A DNA stretch of 64,000 nt from Escherichia phage V18. Under the pieces are notes generated by a model. It was not told the origin of the DNA. It searched no databases and was given only the letters and a program-made list of their open reading frames with translations. Where the stretch lies: sequence record NC_041937.1; one strand, 5' to 3'. The translations under genes were made by a program, and so were the position numbers. The first letter of the stretch is position 1, and each line of letters starts with the position of its first letter. Positions 7,761 to 63,711 of this stretch are shown piece by piece.

Positions 7761-9221
7761 ATGGATAGCAGAAGTTCAGAAATCATTGCCTCACAGAAAG
7801 ATGATGCCCTGAGAATGTTGCAGGCTGCACGTATGTATCTCCTTGAAAAGCTGCCGTTTTATGGCACGCTACTGTCAGGGTTGCAGTTCGTAGAAAACCA
7901 CACATGGTGCTCTACCATGGCAACCGACCATAAACGCATCTATTACAGTCCTGAGTTCATTATGGGGTTGGCTGATGAACGCAAGGCTATTCTTAAGACC
8001 TCTCTAACTGGCGAGCAGTTTGAAATGGCTGAAGTTTTCTATTCACCCAAATCTGTGAAAGAGGTGGCCTTCCTTCTGTCACATGAGGTGGGGCATATTA
8101 TCTGTGATCACCTGGTCCGTGGTAAAAGCTTTGAGCCGGAACTGTTCAATATTGCTTGTGATCACGTTATCAACACAGGTCTTGTGGTTGACTTTAGCAA
8201 GCCTCCTTGTGTTTTCTTCCCGAAGGGGAAAAGCACTACGTTTGTGAAAGGTAAGCCTTTTGGCTTCTTAGCCAGCTGCTACTGCGACATGAAGTTTCAT
8301 GGATGGATTGCTGAGAACGTCTATGCAGTTCTTGATAAGCAAAGAGATCAGAATAACGGTAAAAGTAAGAGCGGTAAAGGTGAGAACTCTCAAGAGGATA
8401 AGCGACAAACCGATGATCACATGAGTGGGAACGGTGGCACCAGTGATGATCTTGGAAAGGCTATGGGATATAATCAGCCACAACCTGTAATCAGCCAATC
8501 TGATAAAGATCAGGCCATGCAGGACTCTGGTGACATGCTGGAGGCAGCAATGCAAGCTTCCGGAGGTCGTTGCCCTGAGGCGGTGCGTGAGTTTGTCAAG
8601 AACAGAGGTAAGCCTGTAATCAACTATATAGACATCATTAAGCAACGCATGTTGTCTAAACGAAAGGCTGAACTGACCTACAGAAAACCTGGTCGCCGAT
8701 CTGGGTCTTTGACCAGCACAATGCGAAAAGTTGGGGCTATAAACAAGAACCAGCACGTTATTGTTCCCGGTCGTAATCCGGAAAACACTATAGATATTGT
8801 GGTGGCTTTAGACGTTTCTGGCTCGATCTCTCAAAGAACTTTAAAGAAAATGTTCAATGAAATCACCGGATTGTGCAATCTGTATAAAGAGTTTAAGGTT
8901 ACAATGTTCTGTTGGTCAACTGAGGTTGGAGAGGTTAAAGTATACACTCGCGGTAACATAGATGAGATGATCAACTATGAGGTCCACTCAACATGGGGCA
9001 CAACAGCTGCTTGCGTGTTCGAGTATCTGGATGCCAACATACCGAATGCAAAAGATGTCATCGTCCTGACCGACCTATACTTTGAGCATAACTTTGAACA
9101 AAAGGCTGTTGACAACAAGTGGAAAAAGTACGATACTTTATGGGTTCTCACCGAGGGGTATAATAAAAATTATATCCCGAGCTTTGGGAAAACTGTAGAA
9201 TTAATCGAGTACGCCAAGTAA
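7761..9221 (+). CDS. vWA-domain protein with N-terminal putative zinc-metallopeptidase domain (DUF2201-like)
   Basis: HEVGHIICDH (HExxH) and MIDAS-like VVALDVSGSIS; start moved to ATG 7761 with GGAG RBS (track start 7740 lies inside a hairpin). Confidence 0.65.
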   Translation: MDSRSSEIIASQKDDALRMLQAARMYLLEKLPFYGTLLSGLQFVENHTWCSTMATDHKRIYYSPEFIMGLADERKAILKTSLTGEQFEMAEVFYSPKSVKEVAFLLSHEVGHIICDHLVRGKSFEPELFNIACDHVINTGLVVDFSKPPCVFFPKGKSTTFVKGKPFGFLASCYCDMKFHGWIAENVYAVLDKQRDQNNGKSKSGKGENSQEDKRQTDDHMSGNGGTSDDLGKAMGYNQPQPVISQSDKDQAMQDSGDMLEAAMQASGGRCPEAVREFVKNRGKPVINYIDIIKQRMLSKRKAELTYRKPGRRSGSLTSTMRKVGAINKNQHVIVPGRNPENTIDIVVALDVSGSISQRTLKKMFNEITGLCNLYKEFKVTMFCWSTEVGEVKVYTRGNIDEMINYEVHSTWGTTAACVFEYLDANIPNAKDVIVLTDLYFEHNFEQKAVDNKWKKYDTLWVLTEGYNKNYIPSFGKTVELIEYAK

Positions 9222-9227
9222 GAGAGG

Positions 9228-9494
9228 ATGTTATTTATGGCAACAGAGGTAGTAATCAAAGCTGAACGCCCAGTTAAAAAAGCTATCAACACGTTCCCTG
9301 TGGGAACCATTGTGAGCATGATCACAGAGTCAGGCCGTGTATCTACGCTGCTGATTGTGAAATCTGCATGTTCTTCTTGTGTGTGGGCTTACGATCTGGA
9401 CGAGAAAGAACTAAAAGATTTTGTTGGGGAGCTGAAAGCAACCGAGCTCGATGCTCGTATCGAAGTATTTGGTGAAACTATGGAGGAAGAGTAA
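9228..9494 (+). CDS. small hypothetical protein (member of tandem trio)
   Basis: 88-aa ORF. Confidence 0.4.
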   Translation: MLFMATEVVIKAERPVKKAINTFPVGTIVSMITESGRVSTLLIVKSACSSCVWAYDLDEKELKDFVGELKATELDARIEVFGETMEEE

Positions 9495-11329: not shown

Positions 11330-11605
11330 ATGACGAAAGAAGAGGCCGACGTATTAGATTTTGCACTAGAGGCTACGCAGGAGGCTTTGGTGTTAGCTTG
11401 GAAAATGAACCAGCGTGCTGCAGAATGCAACCGCCGCATTAATGAGATTCTGGGCATGTCCATGTATGATTTCACTATGCATGCTGGAGAGATTCCTGAA
11501 TTAACTGCAGAGATGAATGATCTTGACAATAAAATCAATATCATTCTGAAGACAGCAGAAACAACTCACCAAACCACCCGTAAATTTATCAACGAGAAGG
11601 TGTGA
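11330..11605 (+). CDS. hypothetical protein
   Basis: 91-aa ORF. Confidence 0.45.
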   Translation: MTKEEADVLDFALEATQEALVLAWKMNQRAAECNRRINEILGMSMYDFTMHAGEIPELTAEMNDLDNKINIILKTAETTHQTTRKFINEKV

Positions 11606-11794
11606 ATATGGACTACAGCTACTGCGGGGAAGAAGTCCCTTTTAATTACAGCAATCTTACCACGAGCAATCCATATGAGACTCGCCACGCACGCACATCA
11701 TTGCCATTGACTTTGATGGAACGTTTAATGCGAGCCCTTTCATCTTCTCCCGCCTGACAGGGATCTAAAGAAGGAGGGGTGGACAGTCTACCTT

Positions 11795-12070
11795 GTGACT
11801 TTCCGATTCATTACTCAAGACAATGTAGACATTGAGTATTGGCGCAAGGAGCTCGATGTTGGTGTGTTTTATACTGGTGGTGTTCAGAAGGCAGCCTATC
11901 TGGCGCAGTTTGATATCTACCCAGATATCTGGATTGATGATTCTCCGGCATGTATTCCGGCTAAGAATCAGTTAGAGTTTGCAATGAAGGAGATCGAGTA
12001 TAAGTCTGAGGCTAAGCGGAACGGATGGCCCTTTATTATTGAAGATTACCCAGATCCTGAACCGGAGTAA
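11795..12070 (+). CDS. hypothetical protein (GTG start)
   Basis: 91-aa ORF; GGAGGGG about 15 nt upstream. Confidence 0.4.
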   Translation: MTFRFITQDNVDIEYWRKELDVGVFYTGGVQKAAYLAQFDIYPDIWIDDSPACIPAKNQLEFAMKEIEYKSEAKRNGWPFIIEDYPDPEPE

Positions 12071-47445: not shown

Positions 47446-47829
47446 TCAACGGCACTCTTTGAGGTGAGATTGTTGAATTGTTAGAGTAGGCAAAGCACGA
47501 TCCAGAGGGAAATACTTATCATAAAACATTGGAAGGTTTATTGCTTGCAATACTCTGCTAAGTGCAGCATATGCCCTGCCACGATAAGCTGTTAGCAGAT
47601 AGGTAACAGTGTAACTGTGGGTGACACAAGCATTACCCTCCGCATCTTGAAACTCATTATCTTCCCAAGTGGTAGGATTGATCGCCAAGGTTTGTAAAAG
47701 TACAAACTCACCTTCCGGCTTCGGTATGGTAGAGCTTTCTGCCAGAACTACAGTTCTTCCTGTGGCAACCTTGACGAGCTTAGCAATGGTTGTTTCAAGA
47801 TCAGAAAAAACTTTTTCGAAAGCTTCCAT
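47446..47829 (-). CDS. neck/tail completion protein
   Basis: 127-aa ORF. Confidence 0.4.
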   Translation of the reverse strand: MEAFEKVFSDLETTIAKLVKVATGRTVVLAESSTIPKPEGEFVLLQTLAINPTTWEDNEFQDAEGNACVTHSYTVTYLLTAYRGRAYAALSRVLQAINLPMFYDKYFPLDRALPTLTIQQSHLKECR

Positions 47830-56209: not shown

Positions 56210-56485
56210 CTAATACTTATCGAGCACTCGGTGGATGATTCTAACAGTAACTGCATTTTCATTCATCAAGTATGCATCTACATCTCTGTAAATATAAAAC
56301 TTCTGCTCACTATCAACAACACAAGCTACTGCCCCTTCAGAGTTGTCTTCAAAAAAGACCACCACTGCATCGCAGCTGAGTTCATGATATGACTCTCGAA
56401 GATTTACAGCCAGAGGATTGAAATCGTCACGAAAATCTACAGTATGGGTTGGATTTACACGCTCTACAATTTTAAGTGTATACAT
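56210..56485 (-). CDS. hypothetical protein
   Basis: 91-aa ORF. Confidence 0.4.
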   Translation of the reverse strand: MYTLKIVERVNPTHTVDFRDDFNPLAVNLRESYHELSCDAVVVFFEDNSEGAVACVVDSEQKFYIYRDVDAYLMNENAVTVRIIHRVLDKY

Positions 56486-56531
56486 TTTAAAGGTTCCTTT
56501 TGTTTATATATGTTTAAAGTATAACTGAAAG

Positions 56532-56608
56532 TGGTCTCCACGGAGTGATTCGAACACTCGACCTCCTGATCCCAATGGTTTATCTCTACCAAGCTGAGCT
56601 ACGCGGAG
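56532..56608 (-). tRNA. tRNA-like gene, possible anticodon TGG (Pro), anticodon stem does not pair as read
   Basis: Good acceptor stem, TTCGAAT T-loop and encoded CCA; putative anticodon loop ATTGGGA but flanking stem unpaired. Confidence 0.45.
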
Positions 56609-56619
56609 TATTTATTATT

Positions 56620-56694
56620 TGGTGGCCCTGGGTGGAATTGAACCACCGTCTGGCGATTATGAGTCGCTTGCTTGAACCTTCCAGCTACAGGGCA
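56620..56694 (-). tRNA. tRNA-Met/Ile-like (anticodon CAT)
   Basis: T-arm GGTGG-TTCAATT-CCACC, anticodon loop CTCATAA, encoded CCA; position 1:72 mismatched. Confidence 0.55.
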
Positions 56695-56770
56695 TGGTGC
56701 TGATAGCAGGACTCGAACCTGCAACCTATTGATTACAAATCAATTGCACTACCAATTGTGCTACATCAGC
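56695..56770 (-). tRNA. tRNA-Thr (anticodon TGT)
   Basis: Clean cloverleaf: 7-bp acceptor, D-stem GCAC/GTGC, anticodon stem ATTGA/TCAAT with loop TTTGTAA, T-arm GCAGG-TTCGAGT-CCTGC, CCA encoded. Confidence 0.7.
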
Positions 56771-56775
56771 AAAAA

Positions 56776-56860
56776 GGTGCTAGGTGATGGAATCGAACCA
56801 CCTATGTATTCAACGACCAATAGATTTACAGTCTACACCGCTACCTCTACGGGATAACTC
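56776..56860 (-). tRNA. tRNA-like sequence, Tyr-like anticodon arm (GTA) with long variable region; no acceptor stem found
   Basis: Anticodon stem-loop GTAGA-CTGTAAA-TCTAT and T-arm with TTCGATT loop present; 5' and 3' ends do not pair. Confidence 0.3.
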
Positions 56861-56867
56861 CCCAATT

Positions 56868-56942
56868 TGGCACCCCGTACTGGACTCGAACCAGTGTCAA
56901 CGGCTTAGAAGGCCGCTGCTTTATCCACTAAGCTAACAGGGC
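56868..56942 (-). tRNA. tRNA-Arg (anticodon TCT)
   Basis: Acceptor GCCCTGT/ACGGGGT (with G-U pairs), anticodon stem GCGGC/GCCGT with loop CTTCTAA, T-arm ACTGG-TTCGAGT-CCAGT, CCA encoded. Confidence 0.65.
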
Positions 56943-58240: not shown

Positions 58241-58819
58241 TCAGCGTTCATAATAAATCTTATTTAACATTACCTCATCCTTTGCAGAGAGAATACCGAG
58301 ATATGCATCACCGAACCTACCTGCAACAACCTCTACATGATACATCACTTCGTTAATATCGTCAAGAGTGATAACTGGATGACCGTATCTCTCTGAGTAT
58401 TGTCTCAGAGTGCGATGTAGGGAATCATCATCGTAGGCAGACTTTTTAATATCACAAACACGACGAATAGCCTTGATGTCGAAAAACCCTGTGCGATACC
58501 AACCAAGAAAAAGGTTTCGTACAGTGTCAACACCTACATCAACACCGTCAAGAACCTTATCTACAAGATAACTGTCATCCTTTGGACCTGCTTCCTTAGT
58601 GCGAATGTAGTTGCCATCTTTTCCAGGTGACATCTCCTTCTCATCACCAACCTGAATACCATCATTTGGTGGTGTTAACCACTTATCCGGATGCTTACGA
58701 TCACGAGCGTTAGAATGATTACGCTGGAAACCTGGCTTCCACTTGAAAGTTTTCTCCATCTGTTCTTCATTCTGATAACGTTTTGCAATCTTTTCACGGT
58801 CATCTTTGCGTGGACTCAT
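58241..58819 (-). CDS. hypothetical protein
   Basis: 192-aa ORF. Confidence 0.45.
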   Translation of the reverse strand: MSPRKDDREKIAKRYQNEEQMEKTFKWKPGFQRNHSNARDRKHPDKWLTPPNDGIQVGDEKEMSPGKDGNYIRTKEAGPKDDSYLVDKVLDGVDVGVDTVRNLFLGWYRTGFFDIKAIRRVCDIKKSAYDDDSLHRTLRQYSERYGHPVITLDDINEVMYHVEVVAGRFGDAYLGILSAKDEVMLNKIYYER

Positions 58820-58924
58820 AGCTGCCTCCTCTTCAAGTTATAGAAAAACTCACTGTATCGCTTTGTAACGAGCTTTTCTATCAAACTGGTGCGATTGCCT
58901 TACCTGGTATAGTTTATATAGCTG

Positions 58925-59190
58925 TGGAGCGATTTAGGGGCCTTCTTGTCCGTTTCCACACATAAACTTCATCCAAGCTCGCGCGGGAGACTCTCAACCG
59001 ACTCCTTACGGCGCTGGCAAGCTTTCGTCGGTGGTCCACATCAGTGCTCGGCCTTTGGCCTGCGCTATCGCTTCGCTCCCACACATGTTAACAGACCTGC
59101 ATGTATGCACTTCTGTTATTGTGTGCACCCGGGAGGCCCGGCATCTCGCCCCTCGTAGCGAGTGCCAATGAAGGGCCGACACTACCCGTA
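58925..59190. other. GC-rich non-coding island, possible structured RNA or origin-associated element
   Basis: About 260 bp visibly richer in G+C than flanking DNA; several short hairpins (CCGGG-AGG-CCCGG, CTCGC-n8-GCGAG); only ORF is a low-complexity 70-aa frame without RBS. Confidence 0.3.
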
Positions 59191-59320
59191 GTAAGTAATA
59201 AATTTAAAACATAGTACTTAGGATCTAGTATATTCTACATAAGTTAAGTATATGTACTTAGTACCATAAGTACTAGATCTTTTATTTTTTATTATTTAGT
59301 TATTTTAGTTATATTCTTTA

Positions 59321-59383
59321 TGTGTCCGTATCACGGACAGTTAGTGTCCGTATGACGGACAGTAGTGTCCGTATCACGGACAG
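59321..59383. repeat. three tandem 21-bp repeats, each containing the palindrome GTCCGT-ATC/ATG-ACGGAC (iteron/operator array)
   Basis: Units at about 59323, 59344 and 59365, read directly from sequence; AT-rich region with inverted repeats GATCTAGTA/TACTAGATC (59222..59279) lies just upstream. Confidence 0.6.
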
Positions 59384-59457
59384 TTACTAACCTCTGTTCC
59401 ATAGCGAACATAAAACATACGAATCCTTATAGTACAGATATTTAAGTTTTTACTGGT

Positions 59458-59808
59458 CTAACCAGTTGTTGACATTCGAATAACTTCTTCTGGTGGCAAA
59501 ACTTTGGAAAATGTGCATCTTTTACCTCTCCCTTGTGTGGATATTTCAACCACTCCTGCACATTCTAAAGTTTTAACGCACGCTGCTGCTTTTGTTTTCT
59601 TTATCCCAATATCTGCTGCAATTTTCCTTGTGCTGGGCGTGAAGCGTGAATTTCCTCCAAGCTTATACCAGTTGTGCAGGTAGCAGTATACGATCTTGTC
59701 ATATAAGTCAAGAACAACAACCTCACCAGTTGTGTCATTCAAAACTTTTGACATAGACAGTATTTCAAGGGGGACTTTAAGATATAGCAGCTTATCCCCA
59801 TCTTTCAT
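59458..59808 (-). CDS. winged-helix/HTH DNA-binding protein
   Basis: 116-aa ORF; STRKIAADIGIKKTKAAACVKTLECAGVVEI resembles wHTH recognition region. Confidence 0.45.
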   Translation of the reverse strand: MKDGDKLLYLKVPLEILSMSKVLNDTTGEVVVLDLYDKIVYCYLHNWYKLGGNSRFTPSTRKIAADIGIKKTKAAACVKTLECAGVVEISTQGRGKRCTFSKVLPPEEVIRMSTTG

Positions 59809-59855
59809 ATCTCCTGATTCTCCTTGTGTGGCAATTTTCTTTAAAATAGCAGGGA

Positions 59856-60410
59856 TTACTCCCCGCTGTCAATAGCAAGACTCATTGCAATACGGTATGC
59901 CTCTTCTAATGGTAAGAGTCTCCCCCACACATCCCAACCGACATCAAACTGCCTGCCAAACAACTGCTGTGTGGTTCCGTGAGCATGACCGAACAGTTGG
60001 ACCGATCCGTGAGGCTTTCTGTTCCACTTTGCAAACTGGTAATGGCTCATACAGATCAAATTCTTGTTGTGGCGAAGCTCGTAATAATCTACAACCTCAT
60101 GACCGAACTCTTTCATAATTCTGACAGTCGTCCTTGTGTCATGGTTACCACGAACAAGAATAATATGTCCGTTCAACATATTTAGAACATCTGGGAGCAA
60201 TTTGTTAATATTCTTATCATTAGTGCACGCAATATCTCCTAAGTGAAACACAGTGTCTGCAGGTGACACAACAGAGTTCCACTTGGTGATGATCCCCGCA
60301 TTCATACTGTCAAGATTGTGATCATACTGAGATCTGTGTTTTTGACATGAGTCAAACTCCATGACCCGCTGGTGGAGAAAGTGTGTGTCGCTTGTTACAA
60401 AGTATTTCAT
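59856..60410 (-). CDS. calcineurin-like metallophosphoesterase (RNA-repair-type phosphatase candidate)
   Basis: Start moved to ATG 60410 with GAGGA RBS; motifs DTHF, GDI and GNHD in canonical order. Confidence 0.6.
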   Translation of the reverse strand: MKYFVTSDTHFLHQRVMEFDSCQKHRSQYDHNLDSMNAGIITKWNSVVSPADTVFHLGDIACTNDKNINKLLPDVLNMLNGHIILVRGNHDTRTTVRIMKEFGHEVVDYYELRHNKNLICMSHYQFAKWNRKPHGSVQLFGHAHGTTQQLFGRQFDVGWDVWGRLLPLEEAYRIAMSLAIDSGE

Positions 60411-60417
60411 ACATTCC

Positions 60418-60885
60418 TCATTTAAGTTTAATGCAGTTTTTAAGCTGGCGTTCCATACGATCCACAACCCTGTCTGGAACATCATGAATGCTTTTACTAC
60501 CATGGCGGTTTTCAACCACGATTACGGTATAACTATACCCATGACTGATCGCCATGTCAATATATTCTTGCACATATTTTTCTTTTGTAAATGTATTACT
60601 TACCACGATACGGTCGTATCCCATACGCATCATATCTTCTACGTTATCTTTGCACCATTTTGCTGCAAGTGTTACTTTACTTGCATCCCAGTTGTAATTT
60701 CCATCATCGTCGTACCAGAACATGTCGTTCTCAAAATGTGGATACAGACCTTCTAAAGATAGCGCACTTGCCAGTGTTGATTTGCCAGACCCTGGTAGAC
60801 CACGCACGATATATAGCATTTTAGACATAGTAATCCTCCGTTTTAATTTCAACGATAGTATACCTAACTGTTTTGTTAATTTCAA
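60418..60885 (-). CDS. P-loop kinase (polynucleotide kinase-like)
   Basis: 155-aa ORF; Walker A GLPGSGKST at N-terminus as in T4 Pnk-type kinases. Confidence 0.6.
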   Translation of the reverse strand: MKLTKQLGILSLKLKRRITMSKMLYIVRGLPGSGKSTLASALSLEGLYPHFENDMFWYDDDGNYNWDASKVTLAAKWCKDNVEDMMRMGYDRIVVSNTFTKEKYVQEYIDMAISHGYSYTVIVVENRHGSKSIHDVPDRVVDRMERQLKNCIKLK

Positions 60886-60946
60886 GTGTTGACACTAGGT
60901 TATTTGTGTGGCAGGATAGACTGACAAAATGACAAATGAGGAACGT

Positions 60947-61606
60947 ATGATGAAGTATTTTAATGCAGACGACCTAGTTGACAAAGGTCTTGTAACCAGC
61001 AGATATTACACAGATCTTGGGTTAAAGATCTATAAATATGCCAGAAAAGTATTTTACAACAATTTATGGCATTTGTCCCCTCGTTTACTGGAGTGCCGAG
61101 GCATTGTTGTCGGTAATGAAGGAAATGTTGTGGCATGGCCCTTCACAAAAGTGTTTAACTTGGGAGAAAACTCCACCAACCTGTCTGACAATAAGCTTGT
61201 GACGGCGGTAGAGAAAAAGAACGGATTCCTTGGTGTGGTATCATCTCATAAAGGTGAACTATTGTTCTCAACAACCGGATCTCTTGATTCTCCATATTGT
61301 AACCTCGCAAAGGAAACCATCCAGGAGCAATGTGGTAATTTAGATCTTATCAAGAAGGTTATGGGCAATGAAAACATGACATTCATGTTTGAAATTTGTC
61401 ACCCTTCAGATCCGCATATTGTTCAGGAAGATCATGGCGCATATTTGATAGGTTGCAGGTATAATGATTCTGGAATAATGCTACCAGAGGCAGCTTTAGA
61501 TGGGATTGCCAAATACCTTGGTGCAAAACGTCCTCACACTGTGCGTGAAATTCCGTTCAGCTATGCAAAAGAATTGGCTGCAGAAACAAGAGGTGAAGGT
61601 ATATGA
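60947..61606 (+). CDS. putative RNA ligase / nucleotidyltransferase
   Basis: Start moved to ATG 60947 with GAGGA RBS; candidate motif I EKKNGF; assignment tentative. Confidence 0.4.
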   Translation: MMKYFNADDLVDKGLVTSRYYTDLGLKIYKYARKVFYNNLWHLSPRLLECRGIVVGNEGNVVAWPFTKVFNLGENSTNLSDNKLVTAVEKKNGFLGVVSSHKGELLFSTTGSLDSPYCNLAKETIQEQCGNLDLIKKVMGNENMTFMFEICHPSDPHIVQEDHGAYLIGCRYNDSGIMLPEAALDGIAKYLGAKRPHTVREIPFSYAKELAAETRGEGI

Positions 61607-61863
61607 TTCGTAAGCCTTACTATCCTTATGATCTGCAGCTGAAGATTAAGTCTCCATACTATCTGGCACGGAAGGCCGTAATGAGGGGTAAAGCTTGGAA
61701 GATTTGGGATGATGATATCTTTAAACGTGTTGACGAAGAGTTTTACGGCATGGTAAACTTCATTCGTAGCAATTACACAGAAGATGTGTGGAACTGCCTC
61801 CTGGAGCAGGAACGCCGTGAGATACTTGACTGCTATTTCCACAACGAGGACTATATGCAATGA
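61603..61863 (+). CDS. small hypothetical protein
   Basis: 86-aa ORF, ATGA overlap with upstream gene. Confidence 0.4.
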   Translation: MIRKPYYPYDLQLKIKSPYYLARKAVMRGKAWKIWDDDIFKRVDEEFYGMVNFIRSNYTEDVWNCLLEQERREILDCYFHNEDYMQ

Positions 61864-62042
61864 AGAAGTGGAAAGTTCTTTTTAATCACTCCAGAGAAAC
61901 GTCAAATTATGGGCTCCCAGACGCTATTTGGCTAAAGAATTCCTCCGAGTTTATGGATTTTATTAACGATAATAGAAAGCTCTACAGACGCGTTTCTGAG
62001 TGGCATATGGACAACGACCTTGGAGAGGTGTTCGAAGGGTAA
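61860..62042 (+). CDS. small hypothetical protein
   Basis: 60-aa ORF. Confidence 0.35.
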   Translation: MKKWKVLFNHSRETSNYGLPDAIWLKNSSEFMDFINDNRKLYRRVSEWHMDNDLGEVFEG

Positions 62043-62211
62043 GACTGTTTTATTGCGCTTGGAAGAGCTATTTGTATTTGGTAAGCCTCCTGTAGTTGAC
62101 AACGTGAAGATTTTCGTGCATACTTCTAACCCATCAGCGGCTCGTAAATTCATGCTTGCGGCTGACTCGTTTAAAAAGTTTGGAATAGAGATTAAACAAA
62201 ACATCTACTGA
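62020..62211 (+). CDS. small hypothetical protein
   Basis: 63-aa ORF overlapping previous. Confidence 0.3.
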   Translation: MERCSKGKTVLLRLEELFVFGKPPVVDNVKIFVHTSNPSAARKFMLAADSFKKFGIEIKQNIY

Positions 62212-62219
62212 GGACACTT

Positions 62220-62921
62220 ATGCGACGACTGATTGTTATCTCCGGTGCTGGTTTGAGTGCTGAATCTGGTATTCCCACTTTCCGATCTGGTAGCACTGCA
62301 ATGTGGGAGAATTTCAGCATCGATGAGGTGTGCAACATCCACACCTTTGCCAAGAACTACTATAAGGTGCATGACTTTTACAATGCACGTCGTGTAGCTT
62401 TAGGCAGTGTTGAGCCTAACCTTGCACATCTTCGGATCGCTGAGTGGTATTCCCGCTGGTCTGGTCGTGTGATCAACCTTACCACCAATGTAGATGATTT
62501 GCTGGAGCGTGCTGGTGTAAAACATGAAGATATTTTACATGTCCACGGGTATTTGCCAGAAATAGTCTATGAGGACGATGAAGGAAGTGACGTCATTAAG
62601 GACATTGGATACTCTGAGGTAGACGCAGGAAAGTATACCTGGGTTAAGCCTAATGTGGTGTTCTTCGGAGAAGTAGCTCCGAAGTATACAGACATGTATG
62701 ACCTGTTGACTTCTCTTACGAGCAATGATATGGTTATCCTTGTAGGGTGCTCCAACACAGTTATCAATTTTAACTGGGAGCATCTAGAGGAGAATGGCAT
62801 TTCACGTAGTGATATTTACCAGTATGAGGATCGCGGCATCCCAGTTTGGTTTAACGGTGCGGTTGATGCCTTCTCTGATAAAACATTCATTGAGACTGTA
62901 GAAAACTTTATGGAACTTTAA
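62220..62921 (+). CDS. Sir2-family NAD-dependent protein deacylase/ADP-ribosyltransferase
   Basis: 233-aa ORF; GAGLSAESGIPTFRS N-terminal sirtuin signature, HG dyad, VFFGE motif. Confidence 0.7.
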   Translation: MRRLIVISGAGLSAESGIPTFRSGSTAMWENFSIDEVCNIHTFAKNYYKVHDFYNARRVALGSVEPNLAHLRIAEWYSRWSGRVINLTTNVDDLLERAGVKHEDILHVHGYLPEIVYEDDEGSDVIKDIGYSEVDAGKYTWVKPNVVFFGEVAPKYTDMYDLLTSLTSNDMVILVGCSNTVINFNWEHLEENGISRSDIYQYEDRGIPVWFNGAVDAFSDKTFIETVENFMEL

Positions 62922-62934
62922 AAGGAGAACTTTA

Positions 62935-63648
62935 ATGCTGAATACTAAATTAATTGACAACCTGGAAAAACTATCCCAACCTGAAAACTACCTTTGGTCT
63001 GCCAACTGGGTGGAAAACTGGAACCGTGTGGCAGCTAAAGTGAAAAAATCATACACACCATTCGAATTACAGCTTAGCTTCATTGAGGAAGAGTTCAATG
63101 AAGTTTTGGAAGAGCTGGAGAAAGGTGATGGTGGAGATCACCTGCTAAAAGAGGCCTGCGATCTTCACGTTGTCACAAGTTATGCCGCTTATCTTGTTAA
63201 TGACAATCACGAAAAGTGGTCAAGCCTGTTTGATAATCCACAGGGTCTTAAGTTCAAGATCGGTGAGTTCTATGATACCCTGATCGCTGCGAAAAACACA
63301 CCTAAGCAAAGAGCGTCAGCTTACCGCTTAGCGGAGTTGTCAACAGCTTTGCTGTTCCAGCTTCGCGGCGATGTGTGCGGGATGATGCGTAAGGTTCTCA
63401 AATCGAATGACAGTAAGTTTGCACGGGTCAACCATCTACGGTATTCACACGGTGCCAGTGCAGATATGCCTGCTGAACAACTCATCGAGTTGGAGATTAA
63501 AGATCTTGAGCGACGCTTTGATGGTAGATATGAAGGTTTTGTTGCTAAGGAAGAGTTCTACAACGGTAATAAAGTTATCATATTCCTTGACAGTAAAGGT
63601 AAGATCATGAAGCCTTCGAGCTTCAAGGATGTAACAGAGTATATTTAA
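62935..63648 (+). CDS. MazG-like nucleotide pyrophosphohydrolase domain protein
   Basis: 237-aa ORF; EEEFNEVLEELEKGDGGDHLLKEACDLHVV matches MazG-type acidic helix motif. Confidence 0.5.
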   Translation: MLNTKLIDNLEKLSQPENYLWSANWVENWNRVAAKVKKSYTPFELQLSFIEEEFNEVLEELEKGDGGDHLLKEACDLHVVTSYAAYLVNDNHEKWSSLFDNPQGLKFKIGEFYDTLIAAKNTPKQRASAYRLAELSTALLFQLRGDVCGMMRKVLKSNDSKFARVNHLRYSHGASADMPAEQLIELEIKDLERRFDGRYEGFVAKEEFYNGNKVIIFLDSKGKIMKPSSFKDVTEYI

Positions 63649-63650
63649 CA

Positions 63651-63680
63651 ACATAGCCGGGATTACCCGGCTTTACTTGT
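63651..63680 (+). terminator. putative rho-independent terminator
   Basis: AGCCGGG-ATTA-CCCGGCT hairpin followed by T-rich tract. Confidence 0.4.
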
Positions 63681-63711
63681 TGTGGAAAGTATGCAAGTGA
63701 GGAAGATAGTT

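Follow-up and report, generated by a model that had tools for sequence, protein, structure and literature searches.

A locus of Escherichia phage V18 probably encodes a phage RNA end-healing and sealing cassette, whose functions are distributed over separate genes in two divergent operons. The window analyzed here, a stretch of 64,000 nucleotides from sequence record NC_041937.1, belongs to an rV5-like E. coli phage, a Vequintavirus, and the reading as a healing and sealing cassette is supported by profile, fold and gene-neighbourhood evidence. Systems of this kind are known, and the cassette is already annotated as RNA repair in close relatives; a literature search on RNA ligase or tRNA repair in rV5 and the Vequintavirinae found no dedicated study and no biochemistry or genetics. 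The gene arrangement is more than chance, since 120 phage records share it at 90-99% identity and it is met again in distant phages. The features of the locus are the following:

56620..56942, minus strand: tRNA genes CAU, Thr-UGU and Arg-UCU (ARAGORN; Rfam RF00005, 51-76 bits)
59856..60410, minus strand: binuclear metallophosphoesterase, 184 aa; predicted 2′,3′-cyclic phosphodiesterase / 3′-phosphatase
60418..60828, minus strand: standalone P-loop kinase, 136 aa; predicted 5′-OH polynucleotide kinase
60829..60946: divergent intergenic region between the kinase operon and the ligase operon, with promoter-like hexamers on the minus strand
60947..61606, plus strand: N-terminal part of an Rnl1-type ligase, 219 codons, with motif I (K-K-N-G), motif III, the E-G of motif IV and a premature stop
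61597..61598, plus strand: 1-base deletion (GGG to GG) in a Gly codon of ligase motif IV (EGYMIRK)
61603..61863, plus strand: C-terminal part of the Rnl1-type ligase, 86 codons, with the rest of motif IV (MIRK), motif V (LKIKS) and a short C-terminal domain
61860..62211, plus strand: cREC (cyclic-phosphate-processing receiver-like) gene, 116 aa in relatives, split in V18
62220..62921, plus strand: Sir2-family NAD-dependent enzyme, 233 aa in V18 and 253 aa in relatives
62935..63648, plus strand: 237-aa protein with weak likeness to MazG-type nucleotide pyrophosphohydrolases, the next gene in the ligase operon

The kinase, phosphoesterase and ligase-like open reading frames (ORFs) described in an earlier note on this DNA are all real. 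That note placed them next to the tRNA cluster, which is a loose description: the tRNA genes share the strand of the kinase and phosphoesterase genes and are about 2.9 kb downstream of them. Relatives of V18 carry 6-7 tRNAs at the corresponding site, and an Rfam scan around the cassette gave no match besides the three tRNAs. The promoter-like hexamers of the intergenic region read TTGAAA-17-TATACT at 60885-60857 on the minus strand. At the far end of the ligase operon, the 62935..63648 protein matches phrog_671 (5.3e-22) and reaches PRA-PH only at 0.084, and its membership of the cassette is uncertain.

In the proposed mechanism, the kinase would phosphorylate the 5′-OH of a broken RNA, and the co-translated metallophosphoesterase would strip the 2′,3′-cyclic or 3′-phosphate to leave a 3′-OH. 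The Rnl1-type ligase would then join the 3′-OH to the 5′-PO4 through a lysine-AMP adduct on the motif I lysine (KKNG) and an AppRNA intermediate, ending in a phosphodiester. The cREC and Sir2 proteins come from the same conserved module and probably act on an intermediate with a cyclic phosphate or an NAD/ADP-ribose linkage, or on a by-product. The enzymatic activities of all cassette proteins are predicted, and an RNA substrate, more precisely tRNA, together with breakage by a host anticodon nuclease, is proposed because of the T4 paradigm, by which the cassette would have an anti-defence role. If this is true, the rV5-like phages, in wide use as candidates for E. coli O157 biocontrol and therapy, encode their own RNA-break repair kit, which could decide escape from tRNA-cleaving defences (PrrC/RloC, PARIS, retron-Eco7, Cas13).

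The kinase and phosphoesterase pair

The kinase carries the Walker A motif noted earlier, which reads GLPGSGKST; the start proposed with it, a TTG at 60885, is less likely than the ATG at 60828, which is preceded by GGAGG and yields a 136-aa product that matches the annotation in relatives. The protein is recognized by Pfam AAA_33 (2.4e-10), by phrog_2071 (1.6e-57) and by phrog_505, annotated as 'polynucleotide kinase' (6.8e-10). In the family alignment, K16/S17/T18, D35, E106-N107 and H109 are invariant and R108 is nearly so. Single-sequence searches of the PDB with the kinase or with an intact ligase returned nothing useful, and profiles were needed; with these, the full-length matches of the kinase are Pnkp1 (9e-5), PSTK, CthPnk (7e-4) and T4 Pnk (7e-4), the matches to solved polynucleotide kinases being weak (E = 1e-5 to 1e-3). 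The AlphaFold model has T4 Pnk (1ly1) as its top Foldseek match and aligns at TMq 0.62-0.67 with T4 Pnkp, CthPnk, Pnkp1 and PSTK, as well as with the uncharacterised putative kinase 2rhm, and at about 0.5 with most small-molecule kinases.

Both a P-loop domain of the polynucleotide-kinase clade and a general-base aspartate are present, D35 falling where T4 Pnk has its general base D35; an arginine at the position of T4 R38 is lacking. The fused C-terminal HAD (DxDxT) 3′-phosphatase is absent, the 136 aa corresponding to a kinase domain only. Judged by its profile matches and its structural model, the kinase is polynucleotide-kinase-like in sequence and fold. Elsewhere in the genome, a second protein annotated as 'polynucleotide kinase' in rV5_ev156 (157 aa) carries a DFDGT motif and corresponds to V18 ~11602-12070, ~48 kb from the cassette. 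It gave no Pfam or PDB match and PHROG matches only to families without known function, and that it forms part of the cassette is unproven.

The kinase and phosphoesterase genes were earlier described as translationally coupled, which is roughly right: the kinase stop codon (TGA, 60420-60418) and the phosphoesterase ATG at 60410 are 7 nt apart, and a GAGGA ahead of this ATG overlaps the stop codon. The phosphoesterase is intact in V18, with 99% identity to its rV5_ev156 counterpart. It scores 28.5 bits against Metallophos_2 and 27.8 bits against Metallophos, both over the Pfam cut-offs, and matches phrog_547 ('phosphoesterase') at 5e-51. All five motifs of the fold are kept (D8xH10, G58D59, G88N89H90, H123 and G141H142xH144), and the metal-binding motifs are invariant. 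By profile, the best PDB match is Aquifex aeolicus aq_1665 (1xm7, 7.5e-27), which is also the top fold match (TM 0.66) of an AF2 model with pLDDT 94. This is the only close solved relative, and, being itself without an assigned function, it gives no substrate. Matches at greater distance belong to generic phosphodiesterases and nucleases (GpdQ, YfcE, MJ0936, MPE nuclease, Rv0805), and the profile hits at E <= 0.01 include no lambda-phosphatase or PPP-family chain, in agreement with the fold search. An RNA-end activity of the phosphoesterase is predicted from gene linkage only.

The ligase and its broken reading frame

The ligase is transcribed divergently from 60947, as the earlier note had it, with GAGGA 5 nt upstream (an alternative start lies at 60929), and its K-K-N-G corresponds to the KxNG of motif I. 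Against PF09511 (RNA_lig_T4_1, curated cut-off 28.3 bits), the V18 N-terminal ORF scores 53.0 bits (5.4e-14) and an intact relative 56.1 bits. The N-terminal ORF matches phrog_562 at 9.9e-55 over positions 6-232 of 377, and the C-terminal ORF matches the same profile at 3.1e-4 over positions 240-322. In the PDB, T4 RNA ligase 1 is the only match of the family profile (E = 4.3e-13, aligned residues 51-249). The equivalents of T4 Rnl1 R54, K75, F77, K99, E159, E227, G228, K240 and K242 are conserved, and among 35 family members the invariant residues are R57, K74, F76, K96-x-N98-G99, E155, E223-G224 and K239-x-K241. Sequence comparison thus places the ligase in the T4 Rnl1 family (PF09511), with all catalytic residues conserved. 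The likeness to T4 appears not to extend over the whole protein: ~65 residues follow motif V, versus ~130 in T4, the profile alignment ends at T4 residue 249, and the NCBIfam equivalog model for T4 RnlA is scored at 39.7 against a cut-off of 242.

The healing and sealing reading of the Pnkp/T4 Pnk-Rnl type had been put forward together with two outcomes that would speak against it, namely a ligase-like ORF devoid of nucleotidyltransferase motifs on profile search and a kinase classifying as a nucleotide kinase. Both were checked and neither was found: the ligase ORF matches a nucleotidyltransferase family above the cut-off, and nucleotide kinases match the V18 kinase at the P-loop only, its full-length matches being polynucleotide and tRNA kinases.

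In all close relatives the ligase is a single ORF of 305/311 aa that extends to the equivalent of 61863, so the end at 61606 proposed earlier is wrong. In V18 the frame is divided into two ORFs, 60947-61606 and 61603-61863, because one G is missing from a GGG run at 61597/8, as seen in alignments with RudolfGeigy and rV5_ev156. The N-terminal translation ends ...ETRGEGI*, which parts motifs I to IV (EG) from the rest of motif IV and motif V, and the ATG of the C-terminal ORF overlaps the upstream TGA (ATGA). This C-terminal product is identical to the V18 protein ASJ80435 and clusters with 304-311 aa ligases. Downstream, a net +1 indel within a divergent patch at ~62051-62058 breaks cREC into two frames, 61860-62042 and 62020-62211, and the Sir2 gene carries a 60-base in-frame deletion at 62778. 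The Sir2-region comparison spans 1461 bases in all 40 listed relatives versus 1401 in V18, and the shortened Sir2 is identical to the V18 protein ASJ80437.

The ligase split most likely reflects a homopolymer sequencing error in the V18 record and not biology, since about 16 other V18 genes have similar homopolymer frameshifts. Over the 64 kb there are 91 indels relative to rV5_ev156, the isolated ones being nearly all +/-1 in homopolymer runs. Of the 74 reference CDS that were matched, 16 are interrupted, those of the large terminase (54997) and the tape measure (43560) among them. A programmed frameshift at the ligase was rejected: a -1 shift would be needed, there is no slippery heptamer at GAA-GGT-ATA-TGA, and the relatives have one more G.

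Alternatively, the ligase and cREC splits and the short Sir2 could be real, arising from decay of the RNA-repair operon in V18 or its sublineage, for example through propagation on hosts without RNA-cleaving defences, or representing a two-piece ligase re-initiated at the ATGA. Such an origin would account for three lesions within 1.2 kb of one operon next to an intact kinase and phosphoesterase, and for two ligase halves that are both in frame across the stop/start overlap, with Tyr225 alone lost. Moreover, the very same G deletion recurs in an independent Logan assembly (contig L010 from ERR700143, 95% identical), again with a 218 + 86 aa split, and in a further assembly, P0123, part of the ligase is deleted internally. 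However, the Logan contig shows the same class of error, since it also has two T5-to-T4 deletions, in the kinase and the phosphoesterase, and a shared context-specific error is plausible. Operon decay was downgraded because essential genes show the same lesion type, among them those for the large terminase, the tape measure, Tc1 and tail proteins; the V18 record also lacks parts of the head gene region. At ~16 split CDS per 64 kb, 0.3-0.4 chance splits are expected in ligase plus cREC, the cluster of 492 ligase sequences otherwise consists of 304-311 aa proteins, and the break sits within a catalytic motif. Real lesions are thus unlikely, and a defect of the record is preferred. Given its many homopolymer frameshifts, apparent pseudogenes in the V18 record should not be taken as biology.

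Gene linkage across phages and competing functions

The linkage of the cassette genes is conserved across distant phages. To define it, a neighbourhood census was made of 80 unrelated IMG/VR viral contigs with the kinase, counting same-strand partners within 8 kb. The phosphoesterase family is present in 50 of the 80 loci and abuts or overlaps the kinase in 27, RNA ligases occur in 44 (Rnl1-type in 22, OB+PF09414 in 29), both partners occur together in 36, and neither is found in 22. In a single locus, a CCA-adding/poly(A) polymerase gene directly follows the kinase. A natural fusion is also known, phrog_8238 ('RNA ligase', 737 positions), with the kinase at 2-109 and the ligase at 440-686. 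The uncharacterised two-gene healing module of kinase and phosphoesterase appears common in phages because the kinase family has >8,000 database relatives and half or more of the sampled loci carry the phosphoesterase and RNA ligases.

These neighbourhoods bear on whether the kinase and phosphoesterase might instead serve DNA ends or nucleotides, as a 5′-DNA kinase and a nuclease or 3′-phosphatase feeding a nearby ATP-dependent DNA ligase. In relatives the gene for such a ligase is found ~2 kb downstream, and in KP12-like phages it immediately follows Sir2; weak matches below threshold connect the phosphoesterase with the ligase-associated endonuclease PdeM (TIGR04123, 2.4e-4) and with the MPE nuclease 6nvo; and T4 Pnk and CthPnk phosphorylate DNA as well. 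The commonest neighbours of the kinase, however, are RNA ligases of two families (in the 44 loci above), with the one CCA-adding enzyme, and not DNA ligases. The kinase-ligase fusion involves an Rnl1-type ligase and the cREC/Rnl1 linkage is conserved, so that a function in DNA repair is considered quite improbable next to RNA healing and sealing.

The two remaining members are identified by family: cREC matches PF20274 at 1.3e-14 in an intact relative (55.1 bits versus a cut-off of 27) and phrog_1479 at 1e-10 in the V18 fragment, whereas Sir2 matches PF02146 at 2.3e-27 and phrog_2162 at 4.5e-96. The cREC gene sits between the ligase and Sir2. In Klebsiella KP12-like phages the co-linear order is Metallophos-x-x-Rnl1-cREC-kinase-SIR2-DNA ligase; in the 80 IMG/VR kinase loci, jackhmmer searches with two seeds each found no cREC or Sir2 at 1e-4. 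The cREC domain has been linked to RNA ligases and NAD/ADP-ribose enzymes and proposed to process cADPR or 2′,3′-cyclic nucleotides, with a role in RNA-end clearing also suggested (Iyer et al. 2021, PMC7824862).

A more specific possibility is that the Rnl1-cREC-Sir2 trio performs NAD-dependent RNA repair, in which cREC would open the 2′,3′-cyclic phosphate to a 2′-phosphate and Sir2 would move this 2′-phosphate, or another terminal block, to NAD+; we regard this as very improbable. The corresponding fungal-style order of heal, seal and dephosphorylate, with the sirtuin replacing Tpt1/KptA, is given the same very low credence.

The phosphoesterase, cREC and Sir2 might also act in counter-defence against cyclic-nucleotide or NAD-derived immune signals, degrading 2′,3′- or 3′,5′-cyclic nucleotides or ADP-ribose derivatives, with the proximity of ligase and kinase being incidental. 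Weak phosphoesterase matches to Rv0805, a cyclic-nucleotide phosphodiesterase, and SpdA, a 2′,3′-cNMP phosphodiesterase, are consistent with this, as are the NAPRTase and PRPP synthase genes (NAD salvage) upstream in KP12-like phages and the proposals for cREC and for calcineurin-like phosphodiesterases, which are discussed as anti-signal enzymes (Iyer et al. 2021, PMC7824862). Nevertheless, the same paper describes the operonic linkage of cREC with RNA ligase along with the RNA-end clearing role, and the phosphoesterase is found against the kinase in 27 loci of the census and with RNA ligases in 36. We therefore attach hardly any weight to a counter-signal function and retain RNA healing and sealing as the preferred reading.

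Comparison with known RNA repair systems

In the case of the cREC neighbourhoods surveyed by Iyer, Anantharaman, Krishnan, Burroughs and Aravind (2021, Viruses 13:63, PMC7824862), the V18 locus has cREC directly after an RNA ligase and directly before Sir2, and KP12-like phages have the same ligase-cREC-Sir2 trio with the kinase inserted. That survey is computational and concerns jumbo phages, whereas the V18 instance belongs to an rV5-like phage of ~137 kb and is accompanied by a kinase-phosphoesterase operon; no description of such an rV5-like instance was found in the literature searched.

Bacterial Pnkp systems (Clostridium thermocellum Pnkp/Hen1; Pnkp1-Rnl-Hen1) have the same inventory of 5′-kinase, metallophosphoesterase and ATP-dependent ligase. 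The kinase-then-phosphoesterase domain order of CthPnkp equals the V18 gene order, and the kinase domains of CthPnk and Pnkp1 rank with the best matches of the V18 kinase in both sequence and fold. Unlike these systems, V18 has three separate genes and not one polypeptide, its phosphoesterase is aq_1665-like and not lambda-phosphatase-like, and its ligase is Rnl1-type and outside the Pnkp ligase clade. With regard to the Hen1 methyltransferase, no methyltransferase family match was found among the ORFs of 58241-63648 or their intact counterparts in relatives.

Phage T4 repairs tRNA with Pnkp and Rnl1, thereby countering the PrrC anticodon nuclease. The V18 ligase belongs to the same family, PF09511, and has T4 Rnl1 as its one solved relative; the kinase shares the T4 Pnk-like fold, the P-loop and an aspartate at the general-base position. 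Several differences set the two apart: the V18 kinase is standalone, without the HAD domain of T4 Pnkp, and a separate binuclear metallophosphoesterase would carry out 3′-healing; the V18-type ligase has ~305 aa versus 374 aa and appears to be without most of the T4 C-terminal domain (residues ~255-374), which is credited with tRNA specificity; and cREC and Sir2 genes form part of the V18-type module. The logic is nonetheless common to both, in that a lytic phage encodes a kinase, a 3′-end phosphoesterase and a ligase.

Gene content and enzyme families of the cassette

The cassette region (59400-63700) is matched at 90-99% identity by 120 phage records, nearly all of them Vequintavirus (rV5-like E. 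coli myoviruses), with RudolfGeigy as the closest (98.1%). GenBank entries of close relatives name the genes 'polynucleotide kinase', 'putative phosphoesterase' and 'RNA ligase'. Eighteen entries under the name 'Campylobacter phage', with C. jejuni as host, share 90-96% identity with the E. coli rV5-like region here, which suggests mislabelled or contaminant entries in the public collection. All three ORFs that the earlier note had read as an RNA-repair cassette were recovered by an ORF scan of the window. Three ORF products of the window are identical to the deposited V18 proteins ASJ80435, ASJ80436 and ASJ80437 (129,454-bp record), which places the window in the V18 genome.

Features of the cassette and its surroundings
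59856-60410, minus strand: phosphoesterase, 184 aa, above the Pfam thresholds for Metallophos_2 and Metallophos
56620-56942, minus strand, downstream of the kinase and phosphoesterase: tRNA genes CAU, Thr-UGU and Arg-UCU
After Sir2 in relatives: gene for a weakly MazG-like protein

The kinase ORF stands as proposed, but not its start at TTG 60885; judged from the sequence, the most likely start is the ATG at 60828, which is preceded by GGAGG and gives the 136-aa kinase annotated in relatives. With a stop-to-start gap of 7 nt and a GAGGA overlapping the kinase stop, the translational coupling of kinase and phosphoesterase is roughly right as proposed, and the pair may fairly be described as tightly operonic or coupled in expression. 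The kinase matches Pfam AAA_33 (2.4e-10), phrog_2071 'ATPase' (1.6e-57) and phrog_505 'polynucleotide kinase' (6.8e-10), and nucleotide-kinase PHROGs at ~1e-3 only, via the P-loop. At E <= 1e-5 its family numbers no fewer than 7,985 database proteins, most of them standalone and of ~130 aa, and conserves the P-loop G15-K16-S17-T18, D35, H56-x-W-C59, S77-N78-T79 and E106-N107-R108-H109-G110; an Arg at the T4 R38 position is absent from the kinase. In the PDB, full-length alignments of the kinase profile are confined to RNA/polynucleotide kinases, with E values of 9e-5 for Pnkp1 of the Pnkp1-Rnl-Hen1 repair complex, 2e-4 for O-phosphoseryl-tRNA kinase and 7e-4 for both C. thermocellum Pnk and T4 Pnk; for the two top-listed fungal kinase chains, as for adenylate, shikimate and gluconate kinases, the alignment is essentially limited to the P-loop. 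The AlphaFold model (pLDDT 84) finds T4 polynucleotide kinase as its best Foldseek match, with TM-scores of 0.62-0.67 for T4 Pnkp, CthPnk, Pnkp1 and PSTK, as well as for 2rhm, an uncharacterised putative kinase, 0.59-0.61 for 6-phosphofructo-2-kinase and 0.46-0.53 for most small-molecule kinases. Matches to solved kinases are weak in absolute terms; those that are full-length in profile, and most of the best in fold, are to polynucleotide/RNA kinases. The protein does not classify as a nucleotide kinase, which leaves the earlier note's reading unrefuted.

The phosphoesterase matches phrog_547 'phosphoesterase' (5e-51), and its metallophosphoesterase metal-ligand motifs are all invariant in 39 homologues. 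Aquifex aq_1665 (1xm7) is the best PDB profile match (7.5e-27), the remaining ones being the generic phosphodiesterases/nucleases GpdQ, YfcE, MJ0936, P. putida MPE nuclease and Rv0805; the AlphaFold model (pLDDT 94) is consistent with these matches, among which no lambda-phosphatase-like chain occurs. By its motifs the protein is a competent-looking binuclear enzyme, but homology does not reveal its substrate, as aq_1665 has no known function and the other matches are generic. The predicted RNA 3'-end healing is assigned to it from gene linkage.

The ligase starts at 60947, with GAGGA 5 nt upstream and an alternative ATG at 60929; its divergent transcription and K-K-N-G motif agree with the earlier note, but the end at 61606 is a premature stop and not the end of the gene. 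The N-terminal ORF matches PF09511 RNA_lig_T4_1 with 53 bits (cut-off 28.3) and aligns to positions 6-232 of the 377 in phrog_562, of which a small ORF at 61603-61863 covers positions 240-322; in the relatives examined, both pieces form a single gene, which encodes 305 aa, or 311 aa if the upstream ATG is used. A three-way alignment places GG in the window against GGG in relatives at 61597/8, where the missing G belongs to the motif IV (E-G-Y-M-I-R-K) Gly codon, so that the first ORF stops after ETRGEGI, and the second, starting MIRKPYYPYDLQLKIKS, bears motif V. The nucleotidyltransferase motifs were found on profile search. R57, K74, F76, K96-x-N98-G99, E155, E223-G224 and K239-x-K241 are invariant in an alignment of 35 family members (42-50% identity), whose profile has T4 RNA ligase 1 as its sole PDB match (2c5u, E = 4.3e-13), spanning T4 residues 51-249 in register with the T4 segments ECRG, KFFN, KEDG, FEF, EGY and KIKS. 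In T4 Rnl1, Shuman-lab mutagenesis reportedly identified R54, K75, F77, K99, E159, E227, G228, K240 and K242 as essential. The tail after motif V lies outside the profile alignment and has ~65 residues against ~130 in T4, and the score with the NCBI T4 RnlA equivalog model (39.7) is far below its cut-off of 242. By profile and motifs the protein is a genuine Rnl1-family nucleotidyltransferase, with a shorter and apparently different C-terminal module.

The cassette is larger than the three genes first described. In relatives, the ligase is followed by a 116-aa gene with a cREC_REC domain (PF20274, 55.1 bits, cut-off 27) and then by a gene for a Sir2-family enzyme. The receiver-like cREC domain was computationally defined by Iyer et al. 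2021 (PMC7824862), who describe its links to enzymes that process NAD/ADP-ribose and its operonic links to RNA ligases, and who propose cyclic phosphate opening as its activity. The rV5-type module belongs to this kind of neighbourhood.

Other regions of the window and a possible stand-alone phosphatase

Three tandem 21-22-nt units at 59322-59386, each with a 17-nt palindrome (TGTCCGTATCACGGACA), lie between an AT-rich stretch (59190-59320) and an HTH gene (59458-59808; phrog_12838 'replication initiation protein', HTH_36/DUF6945), just downstream of the latter; the array is 21 bases (about one unit) longer in rV5_ev156. It looks like an iteron or operator array and is possibly a replication origin. 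On the minus strand, the GC-rich, 286-nt segment 58900-59185 has AT-rich flanks, carries only short annotated ORFs in relatives and matches no Rfam family at threshold; its predicted fold (-104 kcal/mol, z = -2.6 against shuffles) could represent a structured non-coding RNA. A 157-aa protein labelled 'Polynucleotide kinase' in rV5_ev156 (8927-9400) is frameshifted in the window (~11602-12070). Its DFDGT motif resembles that of HAD/DxDxT phosphatases, among them the phosphatase domain of T4 Pnkp. Neither Pfam nor the PDB gave a significant match, and its PHROG matches are only to unknown-function families. The protein may be a 3'-phosphatase that stands alone and has a part in the repair pathway.

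Frameshifts in the ligase and in the V18 record

In the window, cREC is split into 61860-62042 and 62020-62211, by an indel (net +1) within a divergent stretch, 62051-62058, and Sir2 is short by 60 bases at 62778, which are present in 40 of the 40 relatives listed. Together with the ligase lesion, this damage resembled a decaying operon, and the Logan assembly from run ERR700143 (L010, 95% identical) carries the identical G deletion. The same kind of homopolymer frameshift, however, recurs across the window. Compared with rV5_ev156, 91 indels were found in 64 kb, the isolated ones nearly all +/-1 in short homopolymers, mostly G or C (for example at 47502, 39971, 31440 and 23168), and 16 of 74 matched reference CDS are split into different frames, including the large terminase (54997), the tape measure (43560), Tc1, several tail proteins and the prohead-protease inhibitor. 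The window also lacks head gene block segments (~50.7-51.4 kb) and ~370 bases in the tRNA cluster, and the record is ~7-10 kb shorter than its relatives. Since such lesions are incompatible with a viable phage, the V18 record looks error-rich or mis-assembled. The ligase frameshift matches its homopolymer error signature exactly, and L010 has additional homopolymer deletions in its kinase and phosphoesterase genes, so that the shared G deletion can be a context-specific sequencing error. A real ligase lesion is therefore unlikely, and the frameshift is most likely an artefact.

The tRNA cluster, described earlier as adjacent, is on the kinase/phosphoesterase strand but 2.9 kb away. Relatives have 6-7 genes (Pro-UGG, CAU, Thr-UGU, an odd 97-99-nt Lys-like, Ser-UGA, Tyr-GUA, Arg-UCU); the ~370 bases gone from window 56326-56942, relative to a relative's contig (L001, 1-1019), cover the Lys-like, Ser and Tyr genes. 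Indels occur at 56576 and 56583, and tRNA-Pro was not detected in the window cluster.

Gene linkage and comparison with known RNA repair systems

In Klebsiella KP12-like phages (kinase 48% identical), Metallophos, two small genes, an Rnl1-type ligase, cREC, kinase, SIR2 and a DNA ligase are co-directional, with NAD-salvage genes upstream, and the phage family phrog_8238 fuses this kinase type (N-terminal) to an Rnl1-type ligase (C-terminal). ORFs of 80 IMG/VR loci with a kinase homologue (41-50% identity) were searched with the phosphoesterase and ligase profiles. The same phosphoesterase family occurs in 50 of the 80, within 100 nt of the kinase in 27 of these, mostly with a 4-base ATGA-type overlap. 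Rnl1-type ligases were found in 22 loci; among the remaining large neighbours, a Pfam scan showed another RNA ligase type (PF21189 OB fold plus PF09414) to be by far the commonest family, and its own profile detects it in 29. An RNA ligase of either type is present in 44 loci, phosphoesterase and ligase together in 36, and neither in 22, eight of which are truncated at a contig end. Every partner lies on the kinase strand, and in one locus a CCA-adding/poly(A) polymerase gene immediately follows the kinase. Guilt-by-association thus argues strongly that kinase and phosphoesterase act as a pair in RNA end-healing.

Two conserved proteins without Pfam match accompany these genes. One of ~139 aa lies between Rnl1-type ligase and kinase in some distant phages (contigs L074, 7579-7998, and L064, 7582-7998), in the slot taken by cREC in KP12-like phages, and may be an alternative accessory factor. 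The other, of ~412 aa, is a conserved, uncharacterised third partner directly 3' of the pair in many metagenomic phage contigs (L005, 6082-7326; L013, 9079-10314; and similar).

The analysis establishes the family and fold assignments, the intact catalytic motifs and the conserved linkage of the cassette; the kinase, metallophosphoesterase and Rnl1-type ligase support, by profiles, fold and gene neighbourhood, the Pnkp/T4 Pnk-Rnl type domain set named in the earlier note. T4 Pnkp/Rnl1 and bacterial Pnkp are established RNA repair paradigms. Following them, the kinase would phosphorylate 5'-OH RNA ends, the phosphoesterase would turn 2',3'-cyclic or 3'-phosphate ends into 3'-OH, and the ligase would seal the healed ends; the damage repaired would likely be tRNA anticodon-loop cleavage by host defence nucleases. 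A literature search found no paper on an RNA-repair cassette in rV5-like phages, and the cassette is an uncharacterised representative of a known kind, with gene labels already in GenBank relatives. Its main points of interest are the breadth of the kinase/phosphoesterase pair and the unexplained cREC/Sir2 link. By analogy, it would work like T4 Pnkp plus Rnl1, but its kinase has no fused HAD domain and so does not make a T4-type Pnkp. Bacterial Pnkp has the same domain inventory; the cassette differs from it in its separate genes, its Rnl1-type ligase, the absence of Hen1 among the ORFs scanned around it and a phosphoesterase that is aq_1665-like, whereas the bacterial one is lambda-phosphatase-like.
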